Assembly (NCBI GenBank): GCA_905178155.1
Contig: CAJINV010000002.1
Coordinates: forward strand, 4,326,108-4,390,107
Length of the DNA stretch: 64,000 bases
Direction: 5' to 3'
From: Amoebophrya sp. A120
Lineage: Eukaryota > Protista > Dinoflagellata
Shown: positions 2,196 through 64,000 of the stretch, piece by piece
Layout: every line of letters starts with the position of its first letter
Numbering within the stretch: the first letter of the stretch is position 1
The notes under the pieces: model-generated
The model's database searches: none
Seen by the model: only the letters and a program-made list of their open reading frames with translations
Told to the model about the DNA's origin: nothing
Position numbers and translations under genes: made by a program

Positions 2196-5100
2196 ATGTC
2201 TATCTCTTCGACCATGCGCGGGCGAGCAATGGCTGTGACAGGAGCTGCTGCCCTCAAGAAACTCCCGACAAACTCCACGCTGGGTAGTAGTTGTAGTTCT
2301 TCTCTTCTTTACTTCCATCGCTTGCTGATGAGCCTTTTCCTCCTTCTTGGCACCACCAGCATCTTCCACAAAGCAGGAGAAGTAGACGCCGCGCTTTTCC
2401 GCCTCCGCCAGGTGAACCGGGAGGCGGCAGAGCTGTTCAAATCCAATGACGAGCAGTGCACTTTTTACCACAAGAACCATTTATTTGATGGCAGTCGTCT
2501 TCACAACATCAAGCAAAGACAACAGGTACACAGTTCTTGTCAAGTGCACAACGACCAAGATGACGCGATCGACGGTTTTGGCGGGTTGCGGGAGATGGTG
2601 GCGGCATTGCATCTGAGGGATGAGGTATCCAAAAAAAAAAAACTGTGTAAGTGTAAATTTGTGTTGCAGAACATGCAACAGAGTTACACCTGTCATGCCA
2701 GAGAGCCATGAAGTCCTCTTGTTCATGTGTGTTTTCCCTTACAAGCTACGCGTGACAGGTTTTCTCTGTCATGTAGAGCAAATTTGGGGTGCTATTTCTC
2801 AAAGAAAGTTACACTTACACAGTCTTTTTCTTGCATATGAGGCGGCGGAAGAGGTGGAAGCGAAAAGTTCTGGCTCTTGTGGCGCACCGCCAGCATCTTC
2901 ACATCAGAGTTGTTCTTTTTTCCCGTTAGTGGGAGCCGCGCATGATGCTCATCTTGAGTCCTCGTCGCACGTGGAAGAACTACAAGCGGGTGGAGTAGAA
3001 GTTCCTGATGCTGAGCGATCAGCTCAAGAAGTGGTGAAAGACGAGTTGCACTGCCATTCTTCTCCCAGAAGCTGCGCCGGCGGCGCGTTGATATCATCTT
3101 CATCTTCGTCCCCCTGTGCAACTGGTTTTAGAAGTGGTGGCACCACTCGTCATCTGTGGTCCTCCATGTCATTGTCATCCTCCCCCGTTGCCAGAGCCCA
3201 AAGCGGAAGCGGCCACGACTGCTCCTACAAACCCGGGTCCTGTGGTCTTTGCGCGTTGAGGAAATACACAGAAGAATTGCGGACGAGCAGGAAAAATAAG
3301 AAACAGCAACTCGACCAGAACTGGTGCTCCTGGGGTGGTACTTCCGCCACTACTGGGATTGACAAAGAGAAAGATGCTGATGAGACGAGACTGAAGCAAA
3401 GGCGTCACGCTCCACATGTTGCACACTTTGTAGGAGCGGCCTGCGCGGATGACGATGAAGATGTATTCTCGCAGCAACATCACAGGAAGCCTGGTGCAGC
3501 GGCAGCTCCACCAGTATCCGGCGCTCCCCTGGTTCCTTTCTTCTGCTACCTCGTGCAGAACAAGAAATACCTGCAGAACTACTCCCCGCAACGGATTTTT
3601 ATCGACAGAAAAAGACCTAAGTATCCTGATCCATTTTGCTTATTTTGCATGACAAACACAGTCGTTCACGCATGCACTGCATGACAAATTTGATGGGGAT
3701 CATGATGATGATCGTGGCTCTTTTTTTTGTGGATAATTTTGCAGACCTTCCTCCACGGCCTCCGCCCGTTAGAAGAACAGTACGAGTATTACCAAATGCC
3801 GGCAGAGCCGCAATTCCCGGCCGAAGATTTGTCCCGAGGGAGAGGCAGGGCGATAGCTGCAGCAACGGGTGGTGGTGGAACAAGAAGTCGCGCCGCTGGT
3901 ACAACTATGGCGCAGCGCATTTTCACGCCGTGGGCGGCGGGAGGGGTGACCGGGCACGCGCCTTACCATGGTGGGGTGAACAATGGGCAACAGGGGCGCG
4001 GAGGATATCAGAACACGGGTGAAATAGAGCATCACATATGCATTGATATGTGTCTGGGTCTGGAAAGAACTTTTGATGTGGCTTGGACAATCATGCGGAG
4101 GCATCAGTTTCTTGCCGCCAAGCATGACAAGTTTTTGAGGTCGTCCTCGTTGTTTGTTACCCACGACTCTGGATGTAAAATGCGATGTTTGCGCCTGACA
4201 AAAAAGTGGGGTGCTTGGGTAATAACCACGCGCAGGACAGAGGACTTGAGAGTTGTCATGCCAGACAAGCATGACAAACTTGCATTCTTGTTCCAGACCC
4301 AGACACATTTGCACTGGATATCACACGGTGAATAACAACTCTATGCTCCAGCAAATCATCTTCAACCCCGTCCTCTACTGGGTTATATCAAATGCAAATA
4401 TGTCTGGAGACTTGTGATGCTGTTTGGCGCATCTTCATGTGGACGCCTTCATTGACGGCCAAGCATGACAAGTTTTGGAGTTGCTACTGCATGACAAACT
4501 GCGTTTCTGCATGACAGGGGGTTCGTCTCAATGAAATGAAATGAAATGGCAGAGAAGTGCGGCTTTTGGGTGGCGTGCATGACAGACTTGAGAGCCATGC
4601 TAGCCGTGCATGACAGACCTTGCACTCTTCCAGATCCAGACCCAGACATATTTGCATTTGATAGGTTACCAGACACAGCAACTACAGCGCGGGTAGACGG
4701 GGGAGGGAGCAGGGGAGGAACGGACAGGTGGCTCCTACTTGGACGGGTGCAGGATTGAATACGGCGAATGGAGGTGCTGGTAGTACTAGAAGTAGAGGAG
4801 GCACGACAGCGAATGGAGGTCCGCGAACAAACGGGACGTCCACGTCGCACAACAGCCGCATAATTGCGAATAACGTGCGTAGTCACGCCGTGAGGACGAC
4901 GACCGGGTTTTTGTCGCCGAGAGGAAGTAGACAGGTTTCGTCCCCGCAGGGGCGATCCTCGTCCACCCAAGAAGTCGTCAGGCCGATTGACGCACTGGAC
5001 ACTACATTGTACTGGCAGGACGTGTGGCACTGGTTACATTCGCTCCCGAAGTGCAGTTCAACAAGAACATCTTGTGGTGGACGACGAATATTGAATCATG

Positions 5101-8100
5101 CAGGAGCAGCTCCTGCTGCTCCAGCAGCATCTTCGCACGGGCGGTCGCCTAACAGCGACGGCCTGGAAGATTCTTCAGTGGACGACGACATTCGAGGCTT
5201 CCATGTCGCAAGAAGTCGGCCGGATGAGCAACTTGTCGGGGAAGATTTCCACGGAGCAGACGCGGCCGGGCCTGGGTCCTCGGGGCCAGCTGGTCATCGC
5301 GACCTAAGGTCCTCGTCAGGAAGTGGAGGTCCTCGCGAGCAGGACCATATTACGACGACCGGGAGCGGTTCAACTGGTTCATCTTCTTCGTCCTCCGCGA
5401 CGCATCAGCCTGCAGGTGGAAGTAGAACATCAACAGCAGCATCTTCAGGTGGGACAGCATCAACCAATCGAGGATACTACACAGGAACGCCAGAAGTAGA
5501 TGAGGACAACTCCACCTTCGCCGCAACATCCGCAAGCCGTCCAGCAACTCGTCGCACCGCGCACGGTAGCGGCCGCAGACGGACTTCCGGACGTCGACCA
5601 GGGACGTCTTCTAGGACTTCGCGGCCGTCAAACTCCAGGTGGTCATCCGCTGGTGCATCCTCGAGCAGTAGTGCGACTGAAACAAGATTAAGAAGGAACT
5701 ACCCCCGCCAACAAGAAAGCGCAGCAAGCACGTCGGGTCGCGCAGCTCGTCCTGCCAGTACTCCTATGATGTCTTTCCCACGCGGCGCAAACATGCTTGC
5801 AGCGGTGACAAGCAATATCCAGAGAAAAAAAGACCCATGATCTACTTCCCCGTCCAATTTGTCATGGGAAAGAACCATCATGCAATGTAGCAGCTGTGTG
5901 TCATGCAAGATGAAACGGATGGGGCTGAAGATCCTGATAGGTCTGTTTCTGTGGATAAGCAACACGATGGATCGCCAGGCTCCTTCGCAACACGATCAGC
6001 AGGGTCTTCGTCGTCCAGATCCCCATCTGCAAATCGCTCTCGCACCCATACCGCGCAACATGACGCCGATCAACCTTGCAGCAAATGATGTCTCTCCGAC
6101 TGATATTCTCGGTGCAGCATCCAGGAGTAGTGACATTTTGAACGTGTCTTTAGGTCCGCATCCGGTCGTGGTGAGATTGGCGAACCAAACGACAAGTAGA
6201 GGAGGAGTACACACTACGACTACGCCTGGCGGTAATCATCATGATGCTCCTTGTTCTTATGGGGCAGCAGCTGCTGCAGCTTCTGGCTCTGCATCGTCGG
6301 GGACGAGTAGTGGTACCAGCGGGGTTTTGGCGTTTGTAGCACCTGGAGCAGCAAGCTCGTCTTCGGCGCGACCTTCAACATCTTCTTCCGGAATCACACA
6401 AGAACTAGAACAACAGCTCGCGCAAGACCAAGGCCAAGCACCAAATTATACTGAGGAACAAATGGATTTGGATATGGAGTCACCTCTACACGTGGACCCG
6501 AGAACATCTTGTTCGCTGGTGGGCGACGACGAAACCACCAACAGCCCGCCGCAAGAAGAAGATGAACCAGTGGCACAGGGACCGAAACTTCGCGCGACGG
6601 GCTGGCGCCGCGTTGACTACTACAATGACCGCCGGTTCTACAACCACGAAGCCGTTTACGTCGGCCCGCCGGCGCACAAAAACAACGCCTGTTTCGCGAA
6701 TTATGAATCTGTCAGGATTGAAATCGTCAAAGTTGAAATGGTTTGCCATGCATAAAATGCAAGGCATGAAGTGCCTGTCTTGCCGGGATGGCAAGTGAGG
6801 CAGATTGTAAGCCTATTTAGGGTTTGGGATAGAGCTGCTAAAGGAGCATGACAAAAACACTCTTCTGTGCCCAAACAGCATGACAAATTGGATTTCGGTG
6901 CTCCGAAAATTTGTCACGCGCCGCTTGGAAAGTGGTCTTCCAACTGGTATCCATTTTATGCATGACAAATTCTTTCAACTTTGTCGATTTCAAACCTGGC
7001 GCTTCCATACGAACGCGGTGCGGCTGCTGATCAACGAGAATACCTTTGACAACATCGGTATGCATTGCAAAAGTATCGTACTCGTACCAATTGCACCACA
7101 GCATGACTGATCTTGTTTCTTAGCTAACTCGTCAGCATTGCAAATTTCGTTCTTCCTACTTCTTCTTTTGCAATGCATAATAGGAACGGACTGGGAGAAA
7201 GAGAAAGTGGAAGTGTATGCGCAGATGATCATTGTCGAAGAAGAAACTGAGCTGCATCAGGACGATATTGCCATGGGGGAAGATGAAGATGATGAAGACG
7301 CGGCAGATCACTCGAACTCGTCGCCCAATTCTGGTCGTGGCGGTGGCCCGGAGCTCGTATCCATCCTTACACTGGCGGACGCGAAAAAGAAACAGCACGA
7401 CAAACTGCGAAAGATGGGAAGCAGCAGCAGCAGGAGCAAGAAGGTTTTTAGTAGTGGTGCAGCATCGTCTTCGTCGTGGTCCGGGGCGTTTACTGCTGTT
7501 TCTTCCGCATCTGCATCCTCCGTGAAGGTGAAAACCATACCCAAAGCGTATTTTCTGGTTTTCCTGCGAGATTTCGTTCCGAGTGTGGAGGACGTTGAGT
7601 TGCAAGTCGGCACTCCTGCAGCAGGCGGGGCAGCCGCAGCGGCTCCTGCTGCAACGGTGATGGGCGGTTTGGATGCGATTGAGAATGAGAATCACAATCA
7701 GAATCAGGGTCAACAGGAAAGAGGTGGAGCGAGGAACGCGATTGGTCCGGCAGATTTTGAAGACACGGACACGCGGCTGAGCACTGTTGGGCGTCAGGCC
7801 CTGGAAGAGCACTACCTGCACGGAATCAACCAGGAGAGACACTTGTTGCAGTGGCAGGACGGGACTGGGACAAATCCAGCCCAGGTTGCAGGGGCAGGAG
7901 GAACACGACGACCAAGACCACCACAGGTCGCGGTTACGGAAGATGCAGGAGATGGCGCGGCTGCGCAAGAACTGGAGCCAACACAACAACTGGCACCACG
8001 ACGTCCGACGACCCCACTGCAGCGGCAGATCTCCATCGACGGCGATCAGCATCCAGCGGCCCAAGAGGCGCTGCGAGCGGAGCAAGAGAATAATATCAAC

Positions 8101-8693
8101 GCAGAACTACAAGGTGGACAACCAGGACGACCACGCGGAGCTGCTCCACGACCAACGCAGGCAGAACAACGAAGAACCCGGGAGCCGCAGCAACAAATCC
8201 TGGAGCCCTACTACTTCTCGGCGCTGGCGCTGTATGATGCAAACTTGAAATACCCGCTGTAAATTTCCCGTACACGACGTACAAATGCAGTCTCTGCATG
8301 ACAAAACTTGCATTCAGTCCTAGTCTAGCATGACAAGTTGGACTCTGCAAGGTAGCGAAATTTGTCATGCATTTTGTACATGTGCGGGAAATTTACATTG
8401 CATACGAAAAACGGGAGACAGATGAGCACGCGACGCAGCCCGAAGGCGTTGAGCTACCAAACCATGAGCGTGGTATGCATTGCAAAAGTATCCTACTCGT
8501 AGTAATTGCAGTCATGCATTACAAGTGTAATATTTCATAAGGTAAATCCGCATTACAAATTCAATTTGTTATGCTAAGGAAATTTGTAATGCAATTCATG
8601 CTAGTACGATACTTTTGCAATTCATGCGTGGCGAAGAGCGACAATTTCTTGCGGCAGGAATTTTCCTACCAAGAGTTGCAGGATTTGCTCTGA
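2196..8693 (+). CDS. Large low-complexity protein (~1554 aa after removing 9 introner introns); N-terminal hydrophobic segment; function unknown
   Basis: ORFs 2196, 2620, 3727, 4728, 5859 and 7138 join in frame once each TIR element plus one 5-bp DR is removed. Spliced length is 4665 nt (1555 codons), ending TGA 8691-8693. Confidence 0.75.
2626..2837. mobile_element. Introner family C
   Basis: TIR TATCCAAAA..ACTGTGTAAGTGTAA / TTACACTTACACAGT..TTGCATA; DR TGAGG; can also be read as GT-AG 2625-2841. Confidence 0.9.
3600..3735. mobile_element. Introner family E
   Basis: TATCGACAGAAAAA / TTTTTTGTGGATA; DR ATTTT. Confidence 0.85.
4037..4320. mobile_element. Introner family A
   Basis: GTCTGGGTCTGGAA / TTCCAGACCCAGAC TIR; DR TCACA. 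Confidence 0.9.
4386..4663. mobile_element. Introner family A
   Basis: TATCAAATGCAAATATGTCTGG TIR; DR GGTTA. Confidence 0.9.
5816..5957. mobile_element. Introner family E
   Basis: TATCCAGAGAAA / TTTCTGTGGATA; DR AGCAA. Confidence 0.85.
6702..7009. mobile_element. Introner family D
   Basis: GTCAGGATTGAAATCGTCAAAGTTGAAA TIR; DR CGAAT/CGAAC. Confidence 0.85.
7059..7179. mobile_element. Introner family B (internally shortened)
   Basis: TATGCATTGCAAAAG / CTTTTGCAATGCATA; DR ATCGG/ATAGG. Confidence 0.85.
8251..8404. mobile_element. Introner, singleton family K
   Basis: TGTAAATTTCCCG / CGGGAAATTTACA TIR; DR TGAAA/CGAAA. Confidence 0.75.
8474..8626. mobile_element. Introner family B
   Basis: TATGCATTGCAAAAGTATC TIR; DR CGTGG. 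Confidence 0.9.
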
Positions 8694-10157: not shown

Positions 10158-13100
10158 ATGGAGTCCGGGCGCATCTACGTCGACATCACGACGATTATTT
10201 TTCCGGTCTTCATGGGATGGAGCGCGGCGCTGTCGTTACTTTTTCCCGCCTTCTACAAAAAGTACTTCTGTTGCACTATGCGGAAACGGAAGGGCGATTC
10301 AGCATCTGATTCGCTGTACACAACGTCGTCATCCGGAATTATAAAAGCCTCATCGAAACAACAGAATAAAACTGGTACGAGAACAAAGAAGTCCGATAAT
10401 GAAAGATCCGAGTTGAACAAAGTAGCCGGGCCCTGCTCTACTACTTCGCCACATCAAGCAGACGCAGCAGTAGAGCCGGCGGCAGCGACGTCTGCAGAAC
10501 CCGTTGTAGAGCCGAATGCAGTTGAAGAGACTGGAGCTCCATTTCCACACGGAGCTGCTGTGAATACCACTGCTAGTTCATCTTCATCCTGCTGCTCCAC
10601 ACCTACTTCGTCTCGCGGAGGTTCTTCAGGCAGAAACACGATTTTTACTTCCTCACCGACTTCGGCATCGAAGCTGCTCTTGGAGGAGAAGACAGATATC
10701 ATGCAGCAGAACAAGGTAAACAACACGTCGGATAACGCTAGTAAAACCAAACAAGACGCTTCATTTTCATCAAAGCAAGGAGGATCGGCGAGTCGTTTAG
10801 AACACACAACAACTTCCTGGTTCAACATCATCTCTTCGGTCAACCTGAAGAAGTTCCTCACCGACTACTGCGATTCCATCAAGGTTCCCATCGACTTACC
10901 GCCGCTTATGGGGCTCTCAAACGTTACATTCTCAACTGTATAGGTACATGATTTGTCATGCAAAACCACTATCACTATTCACACGACCAAGCCTTCTTTG
11001 CATGACAACTTCTCGACGCGCTAAAGAGCACTATAATCCGTCCCAAATCTGTAATGCAGAAGGCGCAATCCTCCTCCTTTCACTTTTACCACTCTTGCAT
11101 TACAAATTCATGTAACAGTTGAGAGTGTAACGCTTGAGAACGCCATACCGCTCCCCATCACCGCGCAGCTGCCCGCGATCACTGTTTGGGTTTTGTTCTC
11201 CATCGCAGCAGAAGACGCGCTTTATATTGGGGTGTCGATTCCGATTGCCGTTGCGGGGGTGGTATCCTGTGCAAAAATATCGTACTCGTAGGAATCGCAG
11301 TCATGCAATACAAATCTAGTTATCACGGTCAATCCGCATTACAAATTGCATCTGTAATGCTGAGCCAGTTTGTAATGCAATTTCTACTAGTACGATACTT
11401 TTGCAATGCATAGGTGGTGAATTTAATGATTTACCCGCTGGTCTACGACCGGGACAGGTAAGTACTTATAGAGCTGCTTGTTCTCGAGGACCTTGATGAC
11501 CTTCTACTGCTTTATTGAGGAAACATAATTTAGCATGCTCTACTAGAAGTACTAGCCCCAAGATGAACTCAGTACCTGCGCCGTTTTCTCATCATTTCAT
11601 GCGCAAAAAACAAATGTTTATCTTCAGGTACTACCACCAGTTCCTCGCCCAGCTGGTAGTCGCGGTACTGATCATTTTTGCCTGCATTTTCTTTCTCGGG
11701 GTCGAAGATGCGGGTCTCTGCGCGACCTGGGCCAGCGTGCTCGGCGTCCCGTATTATACCTCCGCTTTGTTCGGGATGGCGACGGCGATTCGGGAAGGCA
11801 AGCCGGAAGCGTTGGGGTCGCTTACCATGAACTTCGCAGCGGTATGAAAGCCTCAGGTTGGAAATCCTCAAAGTATAATTTGTATGTAATGCAAAAAAAC
11901 GACTCCAGTTGAAGCGCAGTTTCAGTTTGTAGTCGGCGCATGACAAATTTCCCGGGCACTTAAAGCATGTCTGTCATGCAGATTAAGGCAAAGGGGTGTC
12001 CTTCTCTCGTGCTAAGCAGCACTCCAATTCTTCACCCCTAGCAGGACAATAGTCGGCCTCCATTGCATCCTCTGCAATGCAGTCTTTTTTGCGTCGCATT
12101 TCATGCATCACAAATTATTTCCACTTTGAGGATTTCCATTCTGAGGCTTTCATAAGCGGTGTGCGCGGCGGCCAGCTGGATGCTGCAGGGGTTGTTGGTG
12201 GCGAACGTGATCTATGAACTGCAAAAGTATCGTACTCGTATAAATGCATTCCAAATTTTCTCAGCACGAGAAAGAAAATTTGTAATGCTGATTTGCCTTG
12301 AGCTTGACGTAATGCAAGACCTGCATTTATACGAGTACGATATTTTTGCACAGCATATGATCGAGTTGTTCATCGGCTGTCTGTGCTACACGATAATCAA
12401 CGCTTGCGCACTAGTTTTGAACTTCTGTCTGCGGTCCGGGCCGGTGATTCAGACCATTTTGTCCAGTGGATCGGAAACGGAAAATATGGAAAATAATAAA
12501 ACTGCTGGAGGACTGCAAGAGCAAGAGAAGCGCAGCAGCGACGCTTCATCTACGTCAAATGAAGACAGGAACAAGGATCTCGACAAGGCCAAAGAGGTAG
12601 AGTTCACAAGCACGACAAGTTCCTCTCGGGATCATTACTTCAACAAAGTCGAATCTTCCTCTTCCTCCTCGCCGACGAAGGAGGGTACTGAAATTATGCT
12701 GTTGCGCAATGCAAGCACGACGAGCAATACAAGCACAGCCTTCTTCGAGGACCGGCCCAGTAACACGAGCACGCTGGCGTCGTCTGGTAGTGGCTATCAA
12801 ATGTAAAAATGTCTGGGTCTGGAAATTTGTGATGCTGGGTGGCGTCTCATGATGAGGCCACAAGTGCTGGCGCAGCATGACAAGTTTCTGAGCTCCTGGG
12901 TGTTGCCTATTCTGCATGACAAACTGCGCTTCTGCATCACAGAAAAACGGAGCTCTTGGGTAACGTGCATGACAGATTTAAAGAGTCATGCCAGACAAGC
13001 ATGACAAACATGCATTCTTCCAGACCCAGACACTTTTACATTTGATAGTGGCGGGTCAACGACGACTTTCCATGGCGCCGGTGGCGGTCCTCTCAGCAAT

Positions 13101-51600: not shown

Positions 51601-52093
51601 GATCTACTTCCTGCCGGAAAAGGACCATTAGGAGGACAACAACAAACCGAGATCAACATGACGTCTAAGCGCAAGAACAACTTCCATTTGAACTGTAGCG
51701 GTTTATGCATTGCAAAAGTATCGTACTCGTATAAATGCATATACAAATTATTTCCGCAGCATGAGAAATGAAATTTGTAATGCGGAATTACCTTGAGAAC
51801 AGGATTTGTAATGCATGACTGCAGTACGAGTACGATACTTTTGCACAGGATACGGCTTCCGACCCGCGGATGATTGGGACCTCTTGCGGCATATCCTGTG
51901 CAAAAGTATCGCACTCGTAGTAATTATTGCAATTATGCATGATAAATCTTTTTCTCAAGGTAAATCAGCATGAGAAATTTCATTTGTAATGCTGAGCAAA
52001 TTTGTCATGCAATTTATTATATATACTAGTACGATACTTTTGCACTCCATACGGCAGCGGAAAGGTGGAGTCTTGCGCTACGAAGATCGTTGA
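45679..52093 (+). CDS. RNA-binding protein with two RRM domains and Gly/Pro/Asn-rich tail
   Basis: RRM1 TAVVSNVHRHATRDEVRNYFTEKCGKVADIRFV...IACIQFED; RRM2 RIRITNLPANFD...WFQRFGEMESV...MNGFEYFGEMLKV. Frame verified to 50831. Extension to TGA 52091-52093 is inferred from 3 further frame-preserving introners and a probable GT intron at 50809 whose acceptor is uncertain. Confidence 0.7.
45765..46018. mobile_element. Introner family F-related, long near-perfect TIR
   Basis: TATAACCCGCTCAGGTGTTACAATCTCAAA / TTTGAGATTGCAACACCTGAGCGGGTTATA; DR CATCT. Confidence 0.9.
46052..46203. mobile_element. Introner family B
   Basis: Family B TIR; DR TGAAA. Confidence 0.9.
46974..47147. mobile_element. Introner family B (diverged)
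   Basis: Degenerate B TIR; DR GCCGA/GCTGT; frame restored into RRM1. Confidence 0.7.
47241..47528. mobile_element. Introner family J
   Basis: GTAAAAACATCCCCA / TGGGGACGTTTTTAC TIR; DR GGACG. Confidence 0.9.
47940..48191. mobile_element. Introner family A
   Basis: Family A TIR; DR GAGTA. Confidence 0.9.
48252..48520. mobile_element. Introner family A
   Basis: Family A TIR; DR CGGTT/CGGCT. Confidence 0.85.
48579..48883. mobile_element. Introner family H
   Basis: Family H TIR; DR GATGG. Confidence 0.9.
48951..49230. mobile_element. Introner family J
   Basis: AAAAACCTACCCACACCAGAGT / ACTCTGGTGTGGGTACGTTTTT; DR CAACC. Confidence 0.9.
49291..49505. mobile_element. Introner family C
   Basis: Family C TIR; DR AAATG. 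Confidence 0.9.
50111..50375. mobile_element. Introner family A
   Basis: Family A TIR; DR AACCT. Confidence 0.9.
51244..51395. mobile_element. Introner family B
   Basis: Family B TIR; DR GCATC. Confidence 0.9.
51704..51852. mobile_element. Introner family B
   Basis: Family B TIR; DR CGGTT/CGGCT. Confidence 0.85.
51892..52051. mobile_element. Introner family B
   Basis: Family B TIR; DR CGGCA. Confidence 0.9.
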
Positions 52094-53143: not shown

Positions 53144-56100
53144 ATGGGAGCCGCAACTGCGCTTCTCGACAAGGTCGCTGACGTTTTCTTCAAATTTTTT
53201 TTCCAAACCATTCCGGCGTTTTTCCGCAAGATTTCCTCTTACGAAGGAACGACCCGGCCCTTCACCGTGGAGTTTCTCTTATGAAAGTGCACAACTCCCC
53301 CTCCCCTCGTTTGTCATGCAAAATTCCCAATCCAACATATATTGCCTCTTGGCACTGTTTACATGACAAGTTCTTGTAGCCCAAATAGCACTACACTCGA
53401 GTGCAAATTTGTCATGCAAAACCGGCATAATTCTTTTTCTTGCTGATGCTTGTTGTACTATTGCCGTTCATCTTCATGCTATACAAATGCGATGGAGGGG
53501 GAGTTCTTGCGCACTCTCATATCTCTCTGAAACCAACCACAAGCTGAACGATATCAAGTTCAAAAACGATTTACCAATCAAGGCCCCGGAGTACGACAAG
53601 TCCGAGCTGGGGATCTGGAAAAACAAGCGCGGCCAGAAAATCTTCACGAGAACGATCCACCCGAAGGGGGTACTAAGAGGTTCTAGTACAACAAACACTT
53701 CTACTGCAAGAAGTGACGGCACCACCCTGACTTCTGCATCAGCACCGAAAGTTGTAGACCCCGAGCCGAACTGCTCTCAACATTTGATCTTTTTTCACCA
53801 CGTATGGAATGCAAAAGTATTGTGCTGTCGTATAAATGCATCACAAATTTCCTCAGCATGAGAAATAAAATTTGTAATGCTGATTCAGCTTAAGAACAAG
53901 ACTTGTAATGCATGATTGCAATACGAGTATCAGATGCAGCTTTTGCACAGGGTACCACGGCATCCTCGGACATTGCTCGCAGGCCTTGAAAAACCAGCAG
54001 GGAAATTGCTTGGGGTTATTGTCCCTTGCGCACTATCCTCTGCAAAAGTATCGTACTCGTAGTAATCGCAGTCATGCATTACAAATCTCGATCCCAAGGC
54101 AAAACAGCATGACAAACTCCATTTCTCATGCTGAGTGAATTTGTCATGCGATTTCTACTAGTACGATACTTTTGCAATGCATACGTACGACTTTGCGGAG
54201 AGCGGGTATTCCTGCTTTCTCTACGATGCGGTGGCACATTATGGTGGTGTCAGCATTGAAATCGACAAAGTTCTTGAAATAGCTTGCAATGCATAAAATC
54301 GATACCAGTCGGAAGCCCAATTTTCAAACGGCGCATGACAAATTTCGGCGCCGTTGAAATCAAGTCTGTCATGCTGTTTAGGGACAGAGCGCGTCTTTTG
54401 TCATGCTACTAGAGCAGCTCTATTGCAGACCCCAAACAGGCTCACAATCGGTCTCGCTTGCAATCCCTGCAAGACAGTCACTTCGTGCCTTGCATTTTAT
54501 GCATCACAGATTATTTCAACGTTGTCGATTTCAATCCTGACACACCCACACACATGGGTATTCTGCCGGCTATTTCGCGGACAACACGGACGATCGGGAA
54601 AAACACTACCTGCCGAAGTTCGAAGTATCGCAAGAAAAAAGTGTTACAGTACACTACACATTGTGTTGCAGGAGCCGCAAGACAGACGACCTTTGTCATG
54701 CAGGAAATGCTTGCGAGCCTCGCTTGTTCCTACGTAATATTTTCCTTTATGATCTTTGCATTACAAGCTTTGGCTTTCTCTGCCACGCAGAGAAAATTTG
54801 TGATGCAGCAACTCCAAGAACAAATGTGTAACTGTAACACTTTTTTCTCTACTGCATACGAACACTGTATCGACGACTACGAGGAGTATGTGAAATACTG
54901 TATGAAAAAATACGCAAAGAAAACAACGACGAAAACGAAATTTTTCCTGTACGGAGAGTCCTGGGGCGGCGCGTGCGCACTTCAGCTGGGGATAAGGTAT
55001 GGAAGTGCAAATAAATTTGGTACATACGTAGTTGTTTTAGGTTTATATATTGCTGGGATGGTACAGCTGAGCTTCGCTGTCATCCCGGTCATTTACTCCT
55101 TCTACAGACAGTAATTCTTTCTTTTTGTGATGCACCAGAAATCCAATCTGAAAGTGAAATAGAAATAAATCAAATACCTCTATCAGACTTCAAGAAAAGT
55201 CCCACCCGCTGCATGCCCAGTTCGGCGGCGCCATTCTGAATGCGCCGATGATTCACTTCTCCATGCCGATCCTCCCCATCAAACTGTTTCTCCGCCACGT
55301 CGCCGCGCCCCTGTTCCCGTATGCAGTGCAAAAGTATCTTCGTACTCGTACAAATGCATCACAAATTTCCTCAGCATGAGAAATGGAATTTGTCATGCTG
55401 ATTTGCCTTGGCAACAAGATTTGTAATGCAAGACTTGCATTTATACGAAACGCGTACGATACTTTTGCACAGGATATCCCGACGTGGCGACCAATCTTTA
55501 TGCCCCACAACACCTCTATCAAATGTAAAATGTCTGGGTCTGGAAGATTGCCAGGCTTGTCATGCACATTTTGCATGACTCCTGATGTCTGAGTCTGTGA
55601 TGCATGCCCTAGCATCACAGATTTTGTGAGGGCTTCCCAATGCCTATACCGCATGACAAATGCTCTTTCCGTGTAGCAAAGCTTGGACTTTCTTTGCTGC
55701 TCATGCAATACAGACTTTTTTTGGAATCCACAATCAGCATGACAAGTTGAATTCTTCCAGACCCAGACATTTTTACATATCCACGTAGTTCTCTTCTCTT
55801 TTCTTTCTTCAAAATGTTAAAGTCGTTCTCTTCCCTGTGCAGACAAAACACCAGACATTTTTACATTTGATAACCTCGGTCGACAAGCTGTCCAAAGACC
55901 CCGCGATCCAGCTGCAGGTGACGGAAAAAAACGCCTATGGTGGGGAAAACAATCCGCTGCGGTTAGGGACCGCGTTGCAAATGGTGAGGCAAGTGGAAGT
56001 ATCCTGTGCAGAAGTATCGCACTCGTAGTAATCTTCGCAATTATGCATTACAAATCTATCTTGTTAAGGTAAATCCGCATTACAAATTTAATTTGTAGTG

Positions 56101-56915
56101 CTGAGCCAATTTGTATTGCGATTTATACTAGTACGATACTTTTGCAATGCATAGGAAGACGTGCAGAGAAGTTTGAAGAAGGTGAAATTTCCCTTCTTGC
56201 TCGTCTCTGCAGAATATGCAGTGCCAATATGTAGTCCTCTGGGAACAAGGTTGCAACTTGTGATGCTGTCTCTGTATACTAAAAAGATCTGTATTGCATG
56301 ACCAGCAAGAAGGGGAGTCCAGTTTATACCGCGCGTTGGAGAGAGCATTTCTCATGCGGGATAGGCAACATCAGGAAGCCTTCTAAAAATTTGTCATTCT
56401 AGGCCATGCAACTCAGACATCGAGGGTCATGCAGAATATGCATGACAAACCTGGCAATTATCTTCCAGACCCAGACATGTTTGCATTTGATACAGATAAC
56501 GACGCGGTTTGCCTTCCCTCCGGTGCGCAGGCGCTGATGGATTCATCGAAACATATGAGAGTGCACAACCCCCTCTCCTTCTCATTTGTCATGCAAATTC
56601 CCAAATCCACCAGTCCGTCGCTGCCTTGTGGCACTGTTGGCATGACAGACTCCGGAAGCCCAAACAGTAATACATGAGATGCGTAAATTTATTGTCATGC
56701 ACAGGGTCCAATTGTGCTGGTGTTTCTATTGCCGTTCATGCTATACAAATCCGGGGGAGGGGGAGTTGTGCACTCTCAGAAGACAGGTTTCGGAGAAAAA
56801 CAAAAAACTTGTGTGGATAAAGTCCGATGAGCACATGATAACTGTGAACTCAAAATCCTACTGGAAATTACTGCCGCAGTGCTGCTTTTTTCTAGATACG
56901 CAGACCGGTAGTTGA
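53144..56915 (+). CDS. Alpha/beta hydrolase, monoacylglycerol lipase/lysophospholipase-like (~423 aa)
   Basis: Spliced: KNKRGQKIFTR, IFFHHG, GYSCFLYDAVAHGYSAG, FLYGESWGG (nucleophile Ser), ILNAP, PFLLVSA(E/D)ND (Asp), DEHMI (His). Contains 10 introners plus GT-AG intron 54997-55186; 1272 nt in frame. Confidence 0.85.
53280..53521. mobile_element. Introner family G
   Basis: TATGAAAGTGCACAACTCCCCCTCC TIR; DR TCTCT. Confidence 0.9.
53803..53954. mobile_element. Introner family B
   Basis: Family B TIR; DR CCACG. Confidence 0.85.
54034..54183. mobile_element. Introner family B
   Basis: Family B TIR; DR CGCAC/CGTAC. Confidence 0.85.
54240..54550. mobile_element. Introner family D
   Basis: Family D TIR; DR CACAT. 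Confidence 0.9.
54626..54858. mobile_element. Introner family C-like
   Basis: AAAAAAGTGTTACAGT / ACTGTAACACTTTTTT TIR; DR CGAAG/CGAAC. Confidence 0.85.
55320..55476. mobile_element. Introner family B
   Basis: Family B TIR; DR TCCCG. Confidence 0.9.
55517..55872. mobile_element. Introner family A with duplicated right end
   Basis: Right TIR core appears twice (~55755-55778 and ~55851-55872); DR ACCTC. Confidence 0.85.
56000..56153. mobile_element. Introner family B
   Basis: Family B TIR; DR GGAAG. Confidence 0.9.
56215..56492. mobile_element. Introner family A (left TIR eroded)
   Basis: Intact right A TIR; DR CAGAA/CAGAT. Confidence 0.8.
56554..56780. mobile_element. Introner family G
   Basis: TGAGAGTGCACAAC / GTTGTGCACTCTCA TIR; DR AAACA/AGACA. 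Confidence 0.85.
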
Positions 56916-59445
56916 TAATGTAATGGTGGAAATTAGTTGTACAACGCGAACGCGTTGTCAAGAGCTCCAGCTGCTGCACTCGTAAAGTTGTGGACCGCCT
57001 CTACTATAGCAGTATGTGCGGAGGTCAAGTTTCCCCTTAGCTTTTGAAAACATTCGCCGGACGAGCAGCTGCAGCTCTTACAGCCCCGAGCACGCTCTCG
57101 CTCCACCACCGTCCGTAGGCGAGCCGAGCCGACAGCTCTGAGCTCAGCTGCTCGGATCGCGTGCGAAGAGGACAACATGTTCTTGTGATGAAAAAAAAAT
57201 AATGAAATATTGAACACTTCTGCCGGGTATCCATCATTTCTGTCTAGTCCGTATATCGTTGTGTGCTGTAGTCCTGGAGCCGGTCCGATCTCTTTGCTGT
57301 GCATGTCCCGATGACGTAAAGAGCATTTCGATCGGTTTGTTCTACCGTACCCGCATTTGGTGAAAAAGTCGGTCTTTCGTCATCTGTACACAGTATCTTC
57401 AAAATAAGTTGTCAAGAAGGATGAAAACGATGTTTGATCGGTGGTCTTTAGTATTCGCGTTAGTGCCATAAGCTGAATTTCCTCGGTTGCTTTTTCGTGT
57501 AATCGGAATACCATGCGTGTGAAATTCACTTTATTTTGATTTATATACTTCGTGCTAGTCGTCTGCCTCTCATCCTCGGTGTTGGTGGTCGCTCTCGTTT
57601 GATCGAATGTGTTTTTCCTCTTCGGTTAGAACAACCGCGTTTTTGACGTCGGTTTTTGTTTCAGGGAAAACTATATATCGTCCGGTGGTGTGTGATGTTA
57701 CTCAGGGTAGTACCGTGCTGTAGGAGGACGACGTCTTCCTCTTCGTAAACGTCCCTCATGACTTTTTCCTTTTCGTACAACAACAAAGAGGACTGCGTGA
57801 CGTTCCTCGATACTGGGCATTGCTCCTAAAAGAAACTACTGACGCGCCCGACGAGACCACGATGATCGTTTTTATTTGCCTAAACGAAATATTGAACGAC
57901 TCCCCCTTCTTCGACAGGTTATTTTTCTTGAGACTTGTTGGTCGTCCCCACGTCTGCAACAAGTCCTAGAAGGACACAAAAGTAGAGCATTTACTTCACG
58001 ACCTCGACGCTTTGAACAACAAATTGCAAACTTTTCGGAAATATTTTTATACTTTTATACAAAACTTTTGAACTACTACCGGTCAACATCTTCTTATTTT
58101 ACGAACAAACAAAAAATTCCTATAAATACTACGTCAGTTATGTGGAACAAGTAGAACCTACTGCTCAACAGTAGTGTTGTTACTTCCTCAGAAGTACAAC
58201 TAGCAGGCGAGTGTAGTTTCTACAATAATATACTATGTCACTTCTTCCAGATCTTCCACGCGAAGCCGAAGCCACTATTGCCACTTCTGCAAGCTGTGGA
58301 GGTTGAAGCATTTGCACGACTGCGTCCTGGACCGGGGAAGGTATAGAGTTAGAAGCTTGATGCTGTATGATGTAGTAGGAACGGCTTTTGGTTTTGTGTG
58401 ATGGTGTGAAGACATGTTGTCACATGGAAATAAACGCACAACCGGGGTAGACCGGGTCTAGAAATTTCTCTAGGCATTTTTTTCGCTTAGCAGGTAGCTT
58501 CTTAAGAGAAGCTTCTGAGAGGGGCTTTTAAGTGCCGCCCATCTGAATTCAGATGCGCGCCGGGGCACGCGCCCGCCTGAATTCAGCTGAAGACAGCGAA
58601 AAGACTCCACTGCAGGTGGGCCGAGGGCTGGGCAAGGCCCAAGGGTGCGTCCGCCTACTTTTAGGTAGACGCGCGCCGGGCCAGCCATCCGCAATGCTCC
58701 CAGCGCAGACGCCGGGCCAATCTTCCTCAATTGAGCCGCACGGCGGTCCCAGCGTCTAAATGCAAGGGGGCGCCGGGACAAGTCCGATAGGATTTATGTT
58801 CACGTCGGGCCAGGTCCGCTTGCATTCACGCGGGCGCCGACTTGAATGTAGCCACCTTCCACAGGAGGGGACTTAGAAAGGCAAGACCTCTCCTGAGAGA
58901 GAAAGCCTCGATCTCTTTCGCAGAAATGCAACTTTATTGCGCCTTGGCCTCTACTTTCACTTTCTCGGGAGCAGTGGCTCCTAGCCTCTACGCCCTAGCC
59001 TTGGCTCCCACAGGAGGGGGTGTAAAAGGTCCAAACTGCTCCCGAGAAAGAAATCCGCAAGATGCGTTGCAGAAAGTAAGGGGCCTTGTGCTTGGGCGGC
59101 TTCGTTTTTCCTCTGGAGCGGCCTCCATTGCGTAGTTTATTTGGATGAAGATGCTTCTGAGTTTACTAGACGCCCCATCGCCGGCGTCCTGGACGCCGGC
59201 GTGGTAGTCTCGTAGTAATTACTAAATTTGATTTGTTCCAGATCTTCCACGCGAAGCCACCACCCCGACCACCTCCAAGGAACATGGCTTTCACTCGGCG
59301 CACTCCTAACGCAGCTCGTCACCGGCCCGCAGGTCGTCGTCCCAGCATGATCACCACAAGCACAAACTCTACACGTCGTAGAGGCGCTGGCGCCGCCTCG
59401 CCGAGGACGTCTAGCTGTCCGAGGTACAAGAGGAGAAGCAGAACT

Positions 59446-60657
59446 ATGCGCCGCCGCTTATCGTGCGTAAAAATGTCCTCACGACCCAAGAGTCAAGTAG
59501 ACAGGGACTTTGCAACACGACAAGAAAGCCAAAAGTTTTGGGAGCCACGCATGACAAGTTTGGCGCTGCAGTGTAGAAGTTGTGCCTAGATATTCCAGAC
59601 GCATGACAAATGCGCCCCGTAGTTGTCCTGATTAGTGCATGACAGAATACCAAGCGCCAACATTTTGTACAGAATGCCGTTTATTGAGAACCGCGCGTGT
59701 GAAGTAAACACGCAATTTGGCACGACGTCACCAGCTTATCGGGGTCGTGGGGACGTCTTTGCATAGGATATCGATTACCTCCTATATCAACTGTAAAAAT
59801 GTCTGGGTCTGGAAGGGTGTAGACTTGTAATGCAGGTTTTCCATGACCCATGGCCATGAGGTCCGGAATGCGGGACTTCGCATGACAGACTCTGTGAGGT
59901 CTCTGCCATGCCTATCCTGCATGAGAAACTTCCTCCCAACTTGGTCGAAAGTGGACAGCTTTTGGGAATTATGCAACACAGATCTTTGCATGATTGAGAT
60001 TTAGCATGACAAGTTGGAATCTTCCAGACCCAGGCATTTTTGCATTTGATATCCTACGGGGAAGAACAAGTTCCTGCTTGCTGCAACCAGCGTCTATCCT
60101 GTGCAAAAGTATCGCACTCGTAGTAATTGCAGTCATACACTACAAATCCTTTCGCTAAGGTAAATCAGCATTACAAATTTTATTTCTCATGCTGAGGAAA
60201 TTTGTAATGCATTTATACGAGTGCGATACTTTTGCAATGCACAGCGTCCTGCGCATCGCGATATCAACATACACGACCAGCACTCTAGTGGTATCGCCGG
60301 CCCCTCTATCCACAGAAAAAAAACCCATCCCCATCCATTTTTCGCATGACAGGCACAGAAATTTATACGTGTTTTGCATGACAAATTGGATGTGGATGGG
60401 TGTTTTTTCCTGGATGCCCTCCTCTCGTCAGTGCCGTGAACGTGGAAAAAATCAACGCGCAGCAGCAATCACAGCAGCAGAGGAGCACAACTGGAAGCGC
60501 CAACGGAAGCCGCAAGACAAACGCAGCGCCAGCTGCCCAGCCGAACATGGGAGACAAGATGAACGAGGATAATTGCAGTGGCTCCTGTGGCAGTATGAAA
60601 AAGAAAACTTCAACTTCAAGCTTCTTACAACTACACTACGAAGATGCCGAAATTTAA
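59446..60657 (+). CDS. Small putative secreted protein (~117 aa)
   Basis: MRRRLPPTGKNKFLLAATSVLRIAISTYTTSTLVVSPAPPLVSAVNVEK...SSFLQLHYEDAEI, assembled across 4 introners (354 nt). The start could be the upstream in-frame ATG at 59284. Confidence 0.55.
59459..59770. mobile_element. Introner family J
   Basis: Family J TIR, left arm similar to 19364; DR CCGCT/TCGAT. Confidence 0.8.
59785..60051. mobile_element. Introner family A
   Basis: Family A TIR; DR TCCTA. Confidence 0.9.
60095..60243. mobile_element. Introner family B
   Basis: Family B TIR; DR GCGTC. Confidence 0.9.
60307..60416. mobile_element. Introner family E (shortest, 110 bp)
   Basis: AAAAAACCCATCC / GGATGGGTGTTTTTT TIR; DR CCCTC. 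Confidence 0.85.
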
Positions 60658-60690
60658 TTGCAGCTGCTCTTCTTTTGTTGTCCTCTTCGC

Positions 60691-62677
60691 ATGACGTCGA
60701 CGAGGAGCACGAGAGTCGTGTTCCTGTTGGTATGCGTAGGTGAACAGCAGATCATGGAAATGAAGGAAGTCGAAGTTTCTTCCCCTTGCATAGAATGCGG
60801 CAAGAACACCAGTGGAGATGAGAAGCAGAAACTACCAGTGCAAAAACCAGCAGCGGCCGTCATCGGTCGGTTTTACAACCCACACGAAGGACCTGAGGAA
60901 GTCGAAGGCACTGCTGCTGCTGCAGCCGGACCACACCTGGCCCCCAGTGGTGCTGACCCCGCGGCCGCGCTATGCCTTGCAAATGTTTCTAGGTCTAGTT
61001 GAAGGGAGGTCCCAACTTGCCCCGCACGTTCTCGTGGATGACGGAAAATAAACTTCTTATGTTGCATGCGCCCCAAAACCAAAAGTAAAAGAAAATACGC
61101 AAGTTTCTTGCTACGCCAATACGGAACCTGTCATGTTGCCAGACAGGCATCGCGACCGTGAGGCGTGTGCTACACCTGTAAATACAGCGCATTTGTGTGC
61201 ATAATTCCAGACCACCATCTGCATGACAACTGAAAAGAAGATCTTCATGTGTGACAAACAGGGCGGGAACCCTTCCAGAGCCAAACGTATTTGCAGTCGA
61301 TAGTACGCGCCGCTGCATCAAGCTTCTTCACCCGTAGTTGCACAGCGGTCCGCTGCAACAGAGGATCCTCTTCAGGCTGCTGCTGCTGCAAGCGGGGACC
61401 CCGCGGCCGGAGCGGCAGGAAGGCGGCCAGGCCCGGGCGACCAGGACCACCACGAGGAACAACTACAACTAGCAGGAGGGGCTCCGGTGCGTACCTCCCC
61501 ACCGCCGGCCGCGGCTTCATCTGCCGGCGCCGGACCAAGTGATGGCACTGGGCTGCCACTAGTTGTAAAAAAAGAGCTAAGCAGCACACATCAACTGCCT
61601 CAACGTCAACTTCGCGAGGAACCAGGAAAGAAAGGTCTTCCGCACGATAGTGATATAGATAAAGCAGGCCATGGTGTTAAAGGTGCGCAAAAAAAAGAAG
61701 ACAAGCCAGCGGCTAAAGTACTTCATCTACATGGCGAGAACATGGATAGTGGACCCACTTCGGACAAGGATCATGAGGATCAACAAAATCCGCCATCAGC
61801 AGCTTCCAAAAACGGGGACAAGACATCATCTACAACTGCTCCTGCTAGTAATCATGCCACGCCGCCTTCTGCTCTTGGAGGCGCCCCCACTCCCGTGGAT
61901 TCTTCGAGCGCAACACATCCGGCGCAGCCCGCTGCTGGCGCAGCCCTCTCTGCATGTCTTGACATGCTGGCCAAGCCCAAGACAGATCGTGGCGGCGGCA
62001 AGTTGCGCAGCAAGAAAACGATACCCTCGAAAAGAAACAAAGGGGAGGACGCGGAGTACGAAGGCGAGGTGAACGTCGAGGACGGCCGGCCACACGGGGA
62101 GGGCAAGCTGACGTGGCCGAACGGGGATTTTTTTTGGAGGATGGAGTACGAAGGGCAGTTCCAAGGAGGTTCCATGGATGGCTGCGGCAAGATGGTGTAT
62201 GGGAATGTGCCGATGTGCCTCCCTTCCGTCAGAGCCGAGCCACCCCGATTAGGGACGTATGAAGGGCAGTGGAAGAACGACAAGAGAGAAGGCGAGGGCG
62301 TGCACACGTATCCGGACGGGGCGACTTACAGGGGGCAGTGGTACTTAGACCTCCAACACGGAGAGGGCGAGTACACGTGGCCGGGCGGGTCGGAAAGTTA
62401 CAAGGGGGAGTATAAGGACGGCAAGCCTCATGGCCGTGGCTTGTACACGTGGCCGACCGGGGATACGTATGAGGGGCAGTGGGAGCACAACCAGCGTCAC
62501 GGCGAGGGCGTGCACACGTGGCCGGACCGGACGAGCTGGCACGGGGAGTTTAAGGAAGATCGGGTAGACGCCAGCATCAAAGGCAAGTGCATCCCGCAGG
62601 GCGACAGCGGCCTGGCTGTGGATGGCAAAAGCTTCGCGGAATGCGCCCCGAAGCCGACAAACACAAACTTATGCTAA
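60691..62677 (+). CDS. MORN-repeat protein (~548 aa)
   Basis: Repeats of YEGQW...REGEGVHTYPDGATYRGQW...QHGEGEYTWPGG in ORF 61487-62677, joined to the upstream exon across one introner; start uncertain (60691 or 60754). Confidence 0.85.
60971..61305. mobile_element. Introner, diverged family A-like
   Basis: Degenerate TGCAAAT..GAAGGG / CCCTTC..ATTTGCA; DR CGCGC; frame restored. Confidence 0.7.
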
Positions 62678-63820: not shown

Positions 63821-64000
63821 TACTGGGGCGGACGGACCTCACTCGCAAAACGCTGGGGCGGACGGACCTCACTCGCAAAACACTGGGGCGGATGGACCTC
63901 ACTCGCAAAACACTGGGGCGGATGGACCACGCGCGCAAAACACTGGGGCGGATGGACCACGCGCGCAAAACACTGGGGCGGATGGACCACGCGCGCAAAG
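63821..64000. repeat. 30-bp tandem minisatellite (6 copies, runs off the window)
   Basis: Unit CACTGGGGCGGATGGACC(TCACT/ACGCG)CGCAAAA, head to tail with no spacers. Confidence 0.95.

Follow-up and report, generated by a model that had tools for sequence, protein, structure and literature searches.

Sixty-eight short inverted-repeat elements interrupt 11 genes in a 64,000-nt stretch of the Amoebophrya sp. A120 genome (the window), and at the sites covered by transcript-derived sequences they are lost together with exactly one copy of their flanking 5-nt direct repeat. The cut very probably falls in a single register, in which the intron consists of the last base of the left repeat, the element and the first four bases of the right repeat. 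The elements are introner elements of Amoebophrya A120, as described by Farhat et al. 2021 (PMC7789003).

Element anatomy and removal from eleven genes

An independent detection across the whole window found 68 elements between positions 2626 and 61305. All of them start with TA, 66/68 have TAT at the 5' end, the terminal triplets are TAT and ATA in 58/68, and A is dominant at inverted-repeat positions 11-14. The 5-nt direct repeat is perfect in 50/68 and has one or two mismatches in 18/68, for instance at elements 6702, 7059, 8251, 20997, 21480 and 21775; re-detection thus reproduced the counts of the preliminary description. When the ends are slid within the repeat, GT-AG borders are possible for 6/68 elements, the number described before, and GC-AG borders for 1/68. 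The multi-copy repetition of the elements was likewise recovered; the figure of about ten families, however, depends on the clustering threshold, which here gave seven multi-copy clusters (21, 18, 6, 4, 3, 3 and 2 elements) and 11 singletons. Elements occur within genes in both orientations (the two largest clusters have 12/9 and 8/10), and the signals therefore sit in the symmetric ends.

An additional sample of 327 elements from 148 metagenome loci was collected by a detection blind to the flanks. A perfect 5-nt repeat was present in 236 of these and a 4/5 match in 60, and perfect repeats of 4, 6 and 7 nt were seen only 2, 1 and 0 times; the 5-nt repeat is therefore not due to chance. Insertion in either orientation duplicates 5 nt, and the duplication has no dinucleotide preference. 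With terminal inverted repeats, a target duplication of fixed length, short non-coding sequences, multiple copies and both orientations, the elements have the properties of miniature inverted-repeat transposable elements (MITEs). Five elements of 656-1148 nt contain open frames of at most 159 codons, and A120 is reported to be without transposase in the cited part of Farhat et al. (PMC7789003). Viral contigs searched with the element end and Rfam families searched in the window gave 0 matches each.

Deletion of every element plus k nt, together with 12 GT-AG introns, opens 11/11 gene frames at k=5; among the other values from 0 to 8, k=2 opens 8/11 and k=8 opens 9/11 frames, and the remaining six open 0/11. 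Element plus 5 nt is absent from probable-RNA contigs (set X4, type assigned by a tool) and from annotated proteins. Junctions were taken from contig pieces, since the DNA run (set X1) swamped the joints. Removal is backed by X4 contigs and two annotated proteins at 35/68 sites, with the reading frame as the one line of evidence at the other 33/68. The raw RNA runs X9 and X10 gave just 121 and 3 partial reads, all on element sequence and none exonic, and are therefore uninformative. The earlier claim that the element and exactly one repeat copy are removed, which restores the frame of all 11 genes and rebuilds catalytic motifs, is borne out by X4 contigs, junction peptides and the k=5 result; the rhomboid-type GSSG and AHMGG and the lipase GESWG are present in the spliced translations.

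All genes lie on the forward strand. Seven are supported by their frame only. Gene 1 (2205..8690; once spliced, open over 1551 codons from 2205) contains elements 2626-2837, 3600-3735, 4037-4320, 4386-4663, 5816-5957, 6702-7009, 7059-7179, 8251-8404 and 8474-8626, and gene 2 (10158..13289; 611 aa) contains elements 10907-11147, 11263-11412, 11843-12154, 12213-12357 and 12795-13047 and the GT-AG intron 11458-11627. Gene 4 (23976..25162; 265 aa) harbours elements 24274-24425 and 24711-24937, the latter of which retains little of its 3' inverted repeat. Elements 26865-27184, 27244-27496 and 27942-28194 and GT-AG intron 28739-28926 interrupt gene 5 (26569..30186; 862 aa); gene 6 (32898..34590; 305 open codons) has one element, 33767-34037, and GT-AG introns 33133-33331, 33510-33663 and 34153-34300. 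Gene 10 (59287..60657; 170 aa as modelled) carries elements 59459-59770, 59785-60051, 60095-60243 and 60307-60416 and a candidate upstream GT-AG intron, 58341-59241; a search with its protein returned no matching record. In gene 11 (60691..62677; 548 aa), the inverted repeat of the only element, 60971-61305, stops 3 nt short of the right direct repeat; a cut measured from the hairpin end and one matched to the repeat would here give products that differ by one codon. Gene 3 (15681..22317; 1496 aa; elements 16215-16467, 19364-20019, 20399-20551, 20648-20899, 20997-21262, 21480-21705 and 21775-22079) is supported by its frame and by the C-terminal rhomboid-type motifs.

Gene 7 (36415..44336; 1242 aa) is covered by an X4 contig and an AT5.2 orthologue. 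It contains elements 37581-37789, 37860-38007, 38572-38733, 38807-39015, 39038-39202, 39268-39529, 39668-39989, 40029-40984, 41631-41789, 42029-42183, 43003-43269, 43354-43562 and 43821-44032 and GT-AG introns 41151-41397, 42374-42520, 42742-42891 and 43611-43759. In X4 contig record 9, the pieces 38007-38565 and 44033-44945 are separated by 1641 nt, which is the length predicted for the loss of 11 elements plus 5 nt each and of four GT-AG introns. The AT5.2 orthologue (P0007) aligns gap-free over elements 37581, 38807, 39038, 39268 and 42029; a search of representative proteins returned the orthologue cluster and no A120 protein.

Genes 8 and 9 correspond to annotated A120 proteins, which the exon queries match at 100%, in agreement with the earlier assignment of the elements to Amoebophrya introners. 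Gene 8 (45679..52093) encodes the RRM protein CAD7933341.1 (1008 aa; precomputed Pfam PF00076), has an annotated GT-AG intron, 50809-51216, and contains elements 45765-46018, 46052-46203, 46974-47147, 47241-47528, 47940-48191, 48252-48520, 48579-48883, 48951-49230, 49291-49505, 50111-50375, 51244-51395, 51704-51852 and 51892-52051. Its junction peptides are present 13/13 in the annotated protein (P0002), and X4 contig record 12 skips element plus 5 nt at 50111 and 51244 and, by length, at 51704 and 51892 together. Gene 9 (53144..56915; GT-AG intron 54997-55186) encodes the alpha/beta-hydrolase CAD7933343.1 (423 aa; precomputed Pfam PF00561/PF12146), and all 10/10 junction peptides of elements 53280-53521, 53803-53954, 54034-54183, 54240-54550, 54626-54858, 55320-55476, 55517-55872, 56000-56153, 56215-56492 and 56554-56780 are present in that protein (P0001).

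It is hardly conceivable that the elements are lost at the DNA level, by somatic excision or from empty alleles, with transcripts made from element-free templates. The elements do have the anatomy of cut-and-paste transposons, and the genomic joints were read in part. However, the check for element-free DNA suggested earlier found the elements retained at the spans seen: unique X1 contigs (depth 22-27) carry them intact over 37763-38623 and 46179-47270. X4 contigs lack the elements and, by length, also four GT-AG introns, and the sequence constraint on the elements follows the direction of transcription (see below).

Position of the cut

The position of the cut was deduced from mismatched direct repeats, because these show which copy is kept. 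Of the 18 mismatched repeats, nine were tested, and 9/9 can be reconciled with a cut between bases 4 and 5 of the left copy. The bounds are one-sided, with no element bounded from both sides; the two largest clusters each have one bound from either side. They derive from 5-6 junctions of annotated proteins, which reflect gene-model placement and not raw reads, two contig piece ends and one orthologue residue. Element 48252-48520 (predicted intron 48251..48524) has a mismatch at position 4 and keeps the left copy, and P0002 fits only a cut after base 4 or 5; element 56215-56492 of the same cluster (predicted intron 56214..56496) has a mismatch at position 5 and keeps the right copy, and P0001 does not fit any cut beyond base 4. 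The same pair of bounds was obtained in a second cluster: element 51704-51852 (predicted intron 51703..51856) keeps the left copy at position 4, with an X4 piece ending at 51702, and element 38572-38733 (predicted intron 38571..38737) keeps the right copy at position 5, with an X4 piece ending at 38565, where an extension artefact is possible. Element 54626-54858 (predicted intron 54625..54862) also keeps the right copy at position 5, with P0001 again incompatible with a cut beyond base 4. The left copy is kept at position 3 by elements 54034 (P0001) and 46974 (P0002), at position 2 by element 56554 (P0001) and at positions 2-3 by element 39038, the last being read indirectly from the AT5.2 orthologue residue.

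The two predicted cuts lie at unequal distances from the inverted repeats, the first 1 nt upstream of the 5' one and the second 4 nt downstream of the 3' one; the intron would therefore read nUAU… and end in …AUA-NNNN. At this register, GT-AG borders occur in 3/68 window elements and in 9/282 elements that could be oriented by transcription. Farhat et al. list T at +2 in 9/9 of the predominant A120 sites in the cited part of Table S4 (PMC7789003), a regularity that the fixed register would explain, although the choice of the aligner may contribute.

The removal length could also be precise without a single register, if the cut slides within the duplication or uses a nearby GT or AG. The one-sidedness of each bound, the GT at the predicted register of 54626 and the AG within the allowed range of 56215 and 56554 would fit such a sliding cut; element 21775-22079 has a GT-AG pair available at another register. 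A sliding cut is nevertheless improbable, as the left copy is retained in elements 48252 and 54034 past a GT or GC where a motif-seeking cut would be expected, the 9/9 bounds converge on one position, and the 282 oriented duplications show no enrichment of GT or AG at any register and no G bias. With a fixed register, splice sites that look chaotic would all follow a single rule (n|UAY … AUA+4), which gene finders could use to annotate these genomes and which shows where lariat or circle junctions should lie.

Polarity of the ends and the mechanism of removal

The two ends of the elements are not equivalent. Relative to the direction of transcription, the TA at the 5' end hardly varies, with 1 change versus 17 at the mirrored 3' end. 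In the set of 282 that could be oriented, deviations in the two outermost bases number 0 on the 5' side and 13 on the 3' side (p 2.4e-4), and in the metagenome loci alone 0 and 7 (p 0.016); inverted-repeat positions 4-22 are symmetric (130/3389 versus 130/3423 deviations). Third-base variants at the 5' end are TAC (4) and TAA (1). Given the predicted register, positions +2/+3 are UA in 282/282 elements; one further element, L004:2573-2839, which lies in an 807-aa frame, carries a G at +3 in place of the A. The element 5' TA lines up with +2/+3 of the GTAY donors of this genome: 10/12 GT-AG introns of the window start with GTAT or GTAC and 1/12 with GTAA. At the acceptor, all dinucleotides are used without bias, with AG in 20/282 elements. 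U2-type introns have a conserved U at +2 and a purine at +3. Both are found here at the predicted register, but not the GT/GC donor and AG acceptor of that class.

The preliminary description had proposed a removal keyed to the paired ends or hairpin and not to splice-site dinucleotides. The irrelevance of terminal GT and AG was upheld in 282 elements; the predicted asymmetric cut and a 5' UA constraint that is absent from the 3' end, however, make a mechanism keyed purely to the ends or hairpin an incomplete account. The minimum-energy fold pairs the ends in 53/66 folded elements, with a median z of -7.4 (8 shuffles each). Selection for RNA pairing is without support, because G-U pairs are about as frequent as A-C pairs in the inverted repeats of 51 elements (35 versus 33) and folding of the sense strand is not favoured (36/66 elements).

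The elements share an internal 9-mer, GCATBACAA, of which 146 copies in either orientation are found in 62/68 elements. Outside the elements, the window contains six copies in 6/12 GT-AG introns, three in intergenic or UTR sequence and none in exons. In 47/66 elements, 30-49 nt separate the outermost copy, which can have either orientation, from the 3' end. In the metagenome loci, de novo calling gave 80 GT-AG introns (17 with the strict motif), a noisy set in which some calls are missed elements; here the 9-mer has 33 hits in 16.9 kb of called introns and 4 in 19.2 kb of flank, which gives weak support for an association with introns. It is tempting to speculate that GCATBACAA is a binding site marking introns of both kinds. 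A role as a fixed branch point found no support, as copies within GT-AG introns can have either orientation and their spacing from the 3' end varies. GT-AG introns could not be recognized as decayed elements either; only motif matches of 15-21 nt were found, in 2/12.

On balance, removal by a relaxed spliceosome that recognizes nUAY and uses an acceptor 4 nt beyond the hairpin seems somewhat more probable than not. The elements are copies of miniature inverted-repeat transposons inserted into coding sequence between 5-base target duplications; according to this model, a relaxed, U1-less spliceosome would use the element's own 5' end as donor, nUAY corresponding to the GUAY donor of the genome with +1 freed. 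The inverted repeats would pair and draw the intron ends together, and the 3' site would be set by distance, four bases past the terminal hairpin, and not by AG. AG-free acceptor use is difficult to reconcile with what is known of the chemistry of the second splicing step. Nearly all spliceosomal proteins and U2, U4, U5 and U6, but no U1, are reported for A120 in the cited part of Farhat et al. (PMC7789003). Points against a spliceosome are the unbiased acceptor dinucleotides, the lack of a branch-point candidate at a fixed distance and the G at +3 of L004:2573-2839.

An endonuclease and an RNA ligase acting independently of the spliceosome could instead cut the terminal hairpin with a fixed stagger (1 nt at the 5' side, 4 nt at the 3' side) and release a circle, a mechanism that has been proposed for the nonconventional introns of euglenids. 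This is possible, if rather unlikely: it would account for the irrelevance of the +1 base and acceptor dinucleotide in 282 elements, the independence of orientation, the strong pairing of the ends and the missing branch-point candidate, and euglenid introns with terminal inverted repeats are excised as circles without lariat form, according to the cited part of PMC11282704. Furthermore, one X4 contig retains the annotated GT-AG intron 50809-51216 and lacks the neighbouring elements, which is compatible with separate pathways. However, a hairpin-cutting enzyme would not explain why the conserved bases at the 5' end match +2/+3 of the GTAY donors, why GCATBACAA is common to elements and GT-AG introns, why the start of GT-AG intron 54997 resembles that of an element at this register or why element 24711, with its truncated 3' repeat, still lies in an open frame. 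An unlikely and more tentative proposal is a novel splicing machine that needs neither a +1 G nor AG, in which the strand-symmetric GCATBACAA mark replaces the missing U1 and identifies introns of either kind, only UA is read at +2/+3 and the acceptor is taken 4 nt past the hairpin; every TAT…ATA transposon inserted into a gene, wherever and in whichever orientation, would then be an instant perfect intron.

If a spliceosome removes the elements, they would represent a natural case of AG-independent second-step chemistry.

Relation to introners and nonconventional introns

The phenomenon is already known and published from the same strain; the register, the polarity and the 9-mer were not found in the literature searched. 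A search for papers on a mechanism, lariat or motif, with little coverage of subscription journals, returned none, and the single literature match to GCATGAC is a primer and not a motif report. The removal of tens of thousands of non-canonical introns of Amoebophrya is left mechanistically open in the cited parts of PMC7789003 and PMC11282704.

The window elements have the features by which A120 introners are recognized: they lie in the A120 genome, have inverted repeats that start with TAT and contain a later stretch of A, carry short direct repeats at the exon/intron boundary, form families and are lost from transcripts. As far as the cited part of Farhat et al. goes, strain, TAT-starting inverted repeats, A run, junction repeats, non-canonical ends, predicted hairpin and a mechanism left open are shared. 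That part gives direct repeats of 3-5 nt, inverted repeats of 8-20 nt and an unknown or variable border, whereas a 5-nt duplication, one register, a directional 5' TA and a shared 9-mer were found here; the figures of the paper may show part of this.

Class-12 introners of Polarella glacialis also have a 5-nt duplication, with the acceptor inside the right copy and a donor made of the last duplicated base and the first element base, and those with an NNAGG duplication have the same cut geometry as the A120 elements. In the cited part of that report (10.1101/2020.10.14.339549), NNAGG or NAGGH is required, which gives a real donor and AG, whereas A120 elements need no particular sequence. The nonconventional introns of euglenids resemble the elements in terminal pairing at a fixed offset, transposon origin and duplication-like repeats, and their excision as circles was shown; as described in the cited part of PMC11282704, they pair CAG/CTG at +4..+6 with -8..-6 and have pyrimidine|purine junctions. 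In A120 elements, by contrast, pairing starts at +2/-5 with TAT/ATA and junction bases are unbiased, which sets them apart from the euglenid type. The MITE-derived introns of Fritillaria borealis share terminal inverted repeats and target site duplications with the elements and are removed by an adapted U2 spliceosome; according to the same part of that source, they prefer AG-AC and AG-AT ends and an exonic TAC, whereas the terminal dinucleotides of A120 elements are free except for the U at +2.

Introner elements and their removal from transcripts

Independent detection recovered 68 elements between positions 2626 and 61305 of the window, all of which start with TA and 58 of which have TAT/ATA ends. 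The 5-nt direct repeat is perfect in 50 elements and mismatched at one or two positions in 18, reproducing the counts of the preliminary description. Clustering yields seven multi-copy groups and 11 singletons, and the large groups mix both orientations (12/9 and 8/10). When each element is deleted together with 5 nt and 12 GT-AG introns are also cut, the frame is open in all 11 genes, as had been claimed for removal of the element plus one repeat copy; with the same introns cut, 8/11 frames open at element+2, 9/11 at element+8 and none at six other deletion lengths tested. Sliding within the repeat yields GT-AG ends for six elements, the number estimated earlier, and GC-AG for one. The deletion of element 24711-24937, whose 3' inverted repeat is mostly lost (about six terminal pairs remain), still leaves an open frame. 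Non-coding blocks rich in GC (up to 71%) lie at 30700-32100, 34900-35950 and 58400-59200 and have no second copies in the window or the 148 metagenome loci listed, and a tandem repeat with a 30-nt unit (63822-64000) continues past the window end.

The phenomenon is real, and the class is already known, since introners of the same strain were reported by Farhat et al. 2021 (PMC7789003). The accessible text of that study describes inverted repeats beginning with TAT, direct repeats of 3-5 nt and the absence of U1 snRNA in A120, and states that the introner border 'remains unknown'; the accessible portions of PMC12130899, PMC11453091 and PMC11282704 add no mechanism.

Four sequence runs were aligned to positions 37300-57000. 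Contigs of the DNA run X1 (depth 22-27) span elements intact, and excision at the DNA level is very improbable. The raw RNA runs X9 and X10 contain no exon reads from this region, and X4 is classed as RNA by the tool's guess only. One X4 contig, with pieces at 49506-50105, 50376-51238, 51396-51702 and 52052-52613, omits element+5 at 50111 and 51244 and has room for 30 nt of exon separating elements 51704 and 51892, matching the prediction. In a second X4 contig, 1641 nt separate 38565 and 44033, exactly what the prediction gives once 11 elements+5 and the 693 nt of four GT-AG introns are cut; one piece begins at the right repeat of element 37860. Exon queries match the annotated A120 proteins CAD7933343.1 and CAD7933341.1 at 100% identity, and the predicted junction peptides are present in annotated proteins for gene 8 (45679..52093, RRM protein CAD7933341.1; 13/13) and gene 9 (53144..56915, alpha/beta-hydrolase CAD7933343.1; 10/10). 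The loss of element+5, which the preliminary description had proposed to look for, is supported by X4 contigs or annotated proteins at 35/68 sites (12 in gene 7 at 36415..44336, 13 in gene 8, 10 in gene 9); for the remaining 33, it is deduced from frame or orthology. The gene 7 orthologue from AT5.2 aligns without gaps over five junctions, 37581 among them.

The annotated GT-AG intron 50809-51216 is kept in X4 contig record 12, with the flanking elements gone, and introduces a stop at about 50830. A GC-rich insert of ~800 nt with GAGAGG-like repeats is found at 40130-~40925 of the window and in the metagenome loci L004:1-751 and L038:1497-2368, in elements of differing families; the copies are 87-90% identical and share a common start, and no inverted repeat or duplication was found at the far end. 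The 956-nt element hosting the first copy is removed whole, judged by X4 piece spacing.

Position of the cut

The cut is bounded by which copy's base survives where two repeat copies differ, and 9/18 mismatched repeats are testable. The left copy supplies position 4 at 48252 (annotated protein) and 51704 (X4 contig), position 3 at 54034 and 46974 (annotated proteins), position 2 at 56554 (annotated protein) and, indirectly from an AT5.2 orthologue residue, positions 2-3 at 39038. Position 5 stems from the right copy at 54626 and 56215 (annotated protein) and at 38572, where the X4 piece end is a possible artefact. All nine repeats agree on one cut, after base 4, and both largest clusters are bounded from two sides (48252/56215 and 51704/38572). 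From gene models and contig ends rather than raw reads, we infer that the intron comprises one repeat base, the element and four repeat bases; a sliding cut is improbable. Elements 46974 and 39038 are removed despite repeats matching at just 3/5 positions, which makes the duplication appear to be an insertion scar and not a signal. Figures S19-S25 in the Farhat et al. supplement may already contain part of this register.

GT-AG intron 54997-55186 has an element-like 5' end at this register, lacks a matching 3' repeat and is possibly a converted element. Element 55517-55872 carries a duplicated end inside and a pyrimidine-rich insert that closes with CAG, resembling an acceptor; in the annotated protein, the outer ends are the ones used.

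Asymmetry of the ends and a shared internal motif

Metagenome contigs of a single assembly, scanned with one element end, gave at least 148 loci (at least 395 kb); in these, detection relying on repeat positions 4-24 alone yielded at least 327 elements. The loci listed share the window's element families at 66-95% identity, and none of them overlaps window genes. Among 327 elements in these loci, the 5-nt repeat is perfect in 236 and matches at 4/5 positions in 60; 309 match at 3/5 or better, of which 214 are orientable by reading frame, and strands agree in 43/44 multi-element loci listed. Together with the 68 window elements, the oriented set comprises 282, in which the duplication has no sequence preference (GT 74, AG 20, both 9 at the inferred register). 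Deviations in the two outermost element bases number 0 at the transcribed 5' end and 13 at the 3' end (p 2.4e-4; listed loci alone 0 vs 7, p 0.016), and positions 4-22 deviate equally at both ends. The unoriented elements set aside include one counter-example (L004:2573-2839, G at +3, inside an 807-aa frame), three further 3' deviations by neighbours' strand, one more that is probable and two mis-registered cases; with the deviating cases counted in, the tally is 1 vs 17 (p 1.4e-4). The U at +2 is unchanged in every element, and 10/12 window GT-AG introns start with GTAT or GTAC, the same +2..+4 as the elements.

The 9-mer GCATBACAA occurs 155 times in the window (2.3 expected): 146 copies lie within elements (62/68 carrying it), six in 6/12 GT-AG introns (0.07 expected), none in 25.8 kb of exons (0.53 expected) and three elsewhere. 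Its orientations are balanced (293 vs 316, listed loci plus window), and copies repeatedly lie 17-20, 31-33 or 47 nt apart. In the noisy set of predicted GT-AG introns of the listed loci, 17/80 carry it, and its distance to the acceptor is not constant. The 9-mer may be a transposase site left by old insertions or a host intron mark. Five copies cluster at 23499-23740 upstream of gene 4, where no element was detected; the cluster may mark an intron of the 5' UTR or a remnant.

Searches covering few subscription papers found no published work on register, lariats or internal motif; no precedent in print was found for a single register, for a constraint on the 5' UA or for a motif common to both kinds of intron, and these points make the excision question directly testable.

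Mechanism of excision

In predicted folds of the 66 elements of up to 400 nt, the ends pair in 53, with exact TAT-ATA pairing in 40, and the median z is -7.4 (eight shuffles per element only). Neither fold stability (36/66) nor wobble pairs (35 vs 33) show a strand bias, and they therefore give no sign of selection on RNA pairing. A micro-exon of about 9-10 nt (59770-59785) lies between two elements, and other exons of 17-35 nt exist; hairpins of neighbours must therefore not cross-pair.

A TIR transposon would land in a gene and create the 5-nt duplication; its first bases would supply donor positions +2..+4, with +1 unconstrained, and the paired ends would present the 3' end, placing the acceptor four bases past the helix. 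We lean towards removal by a relaxed spliceosome. The total AG indifference of the elements and the absence of any branch-point candidate speak for a hairpin-measuring endonuclease with a ligase, as in euglenids; we consider this route possible but doubtful, and a sliding cut or DNA excision less likely than either. In favour of the relaxed spliceosome are the directionality of the constraint, the agreement with native donors, the motif common to both intron kinds and the geometry of class-12 introners with NNAGG in Polarella, which, as far as the accessible part of their description goes, is identical to that of the A120 elements at the inferred register.
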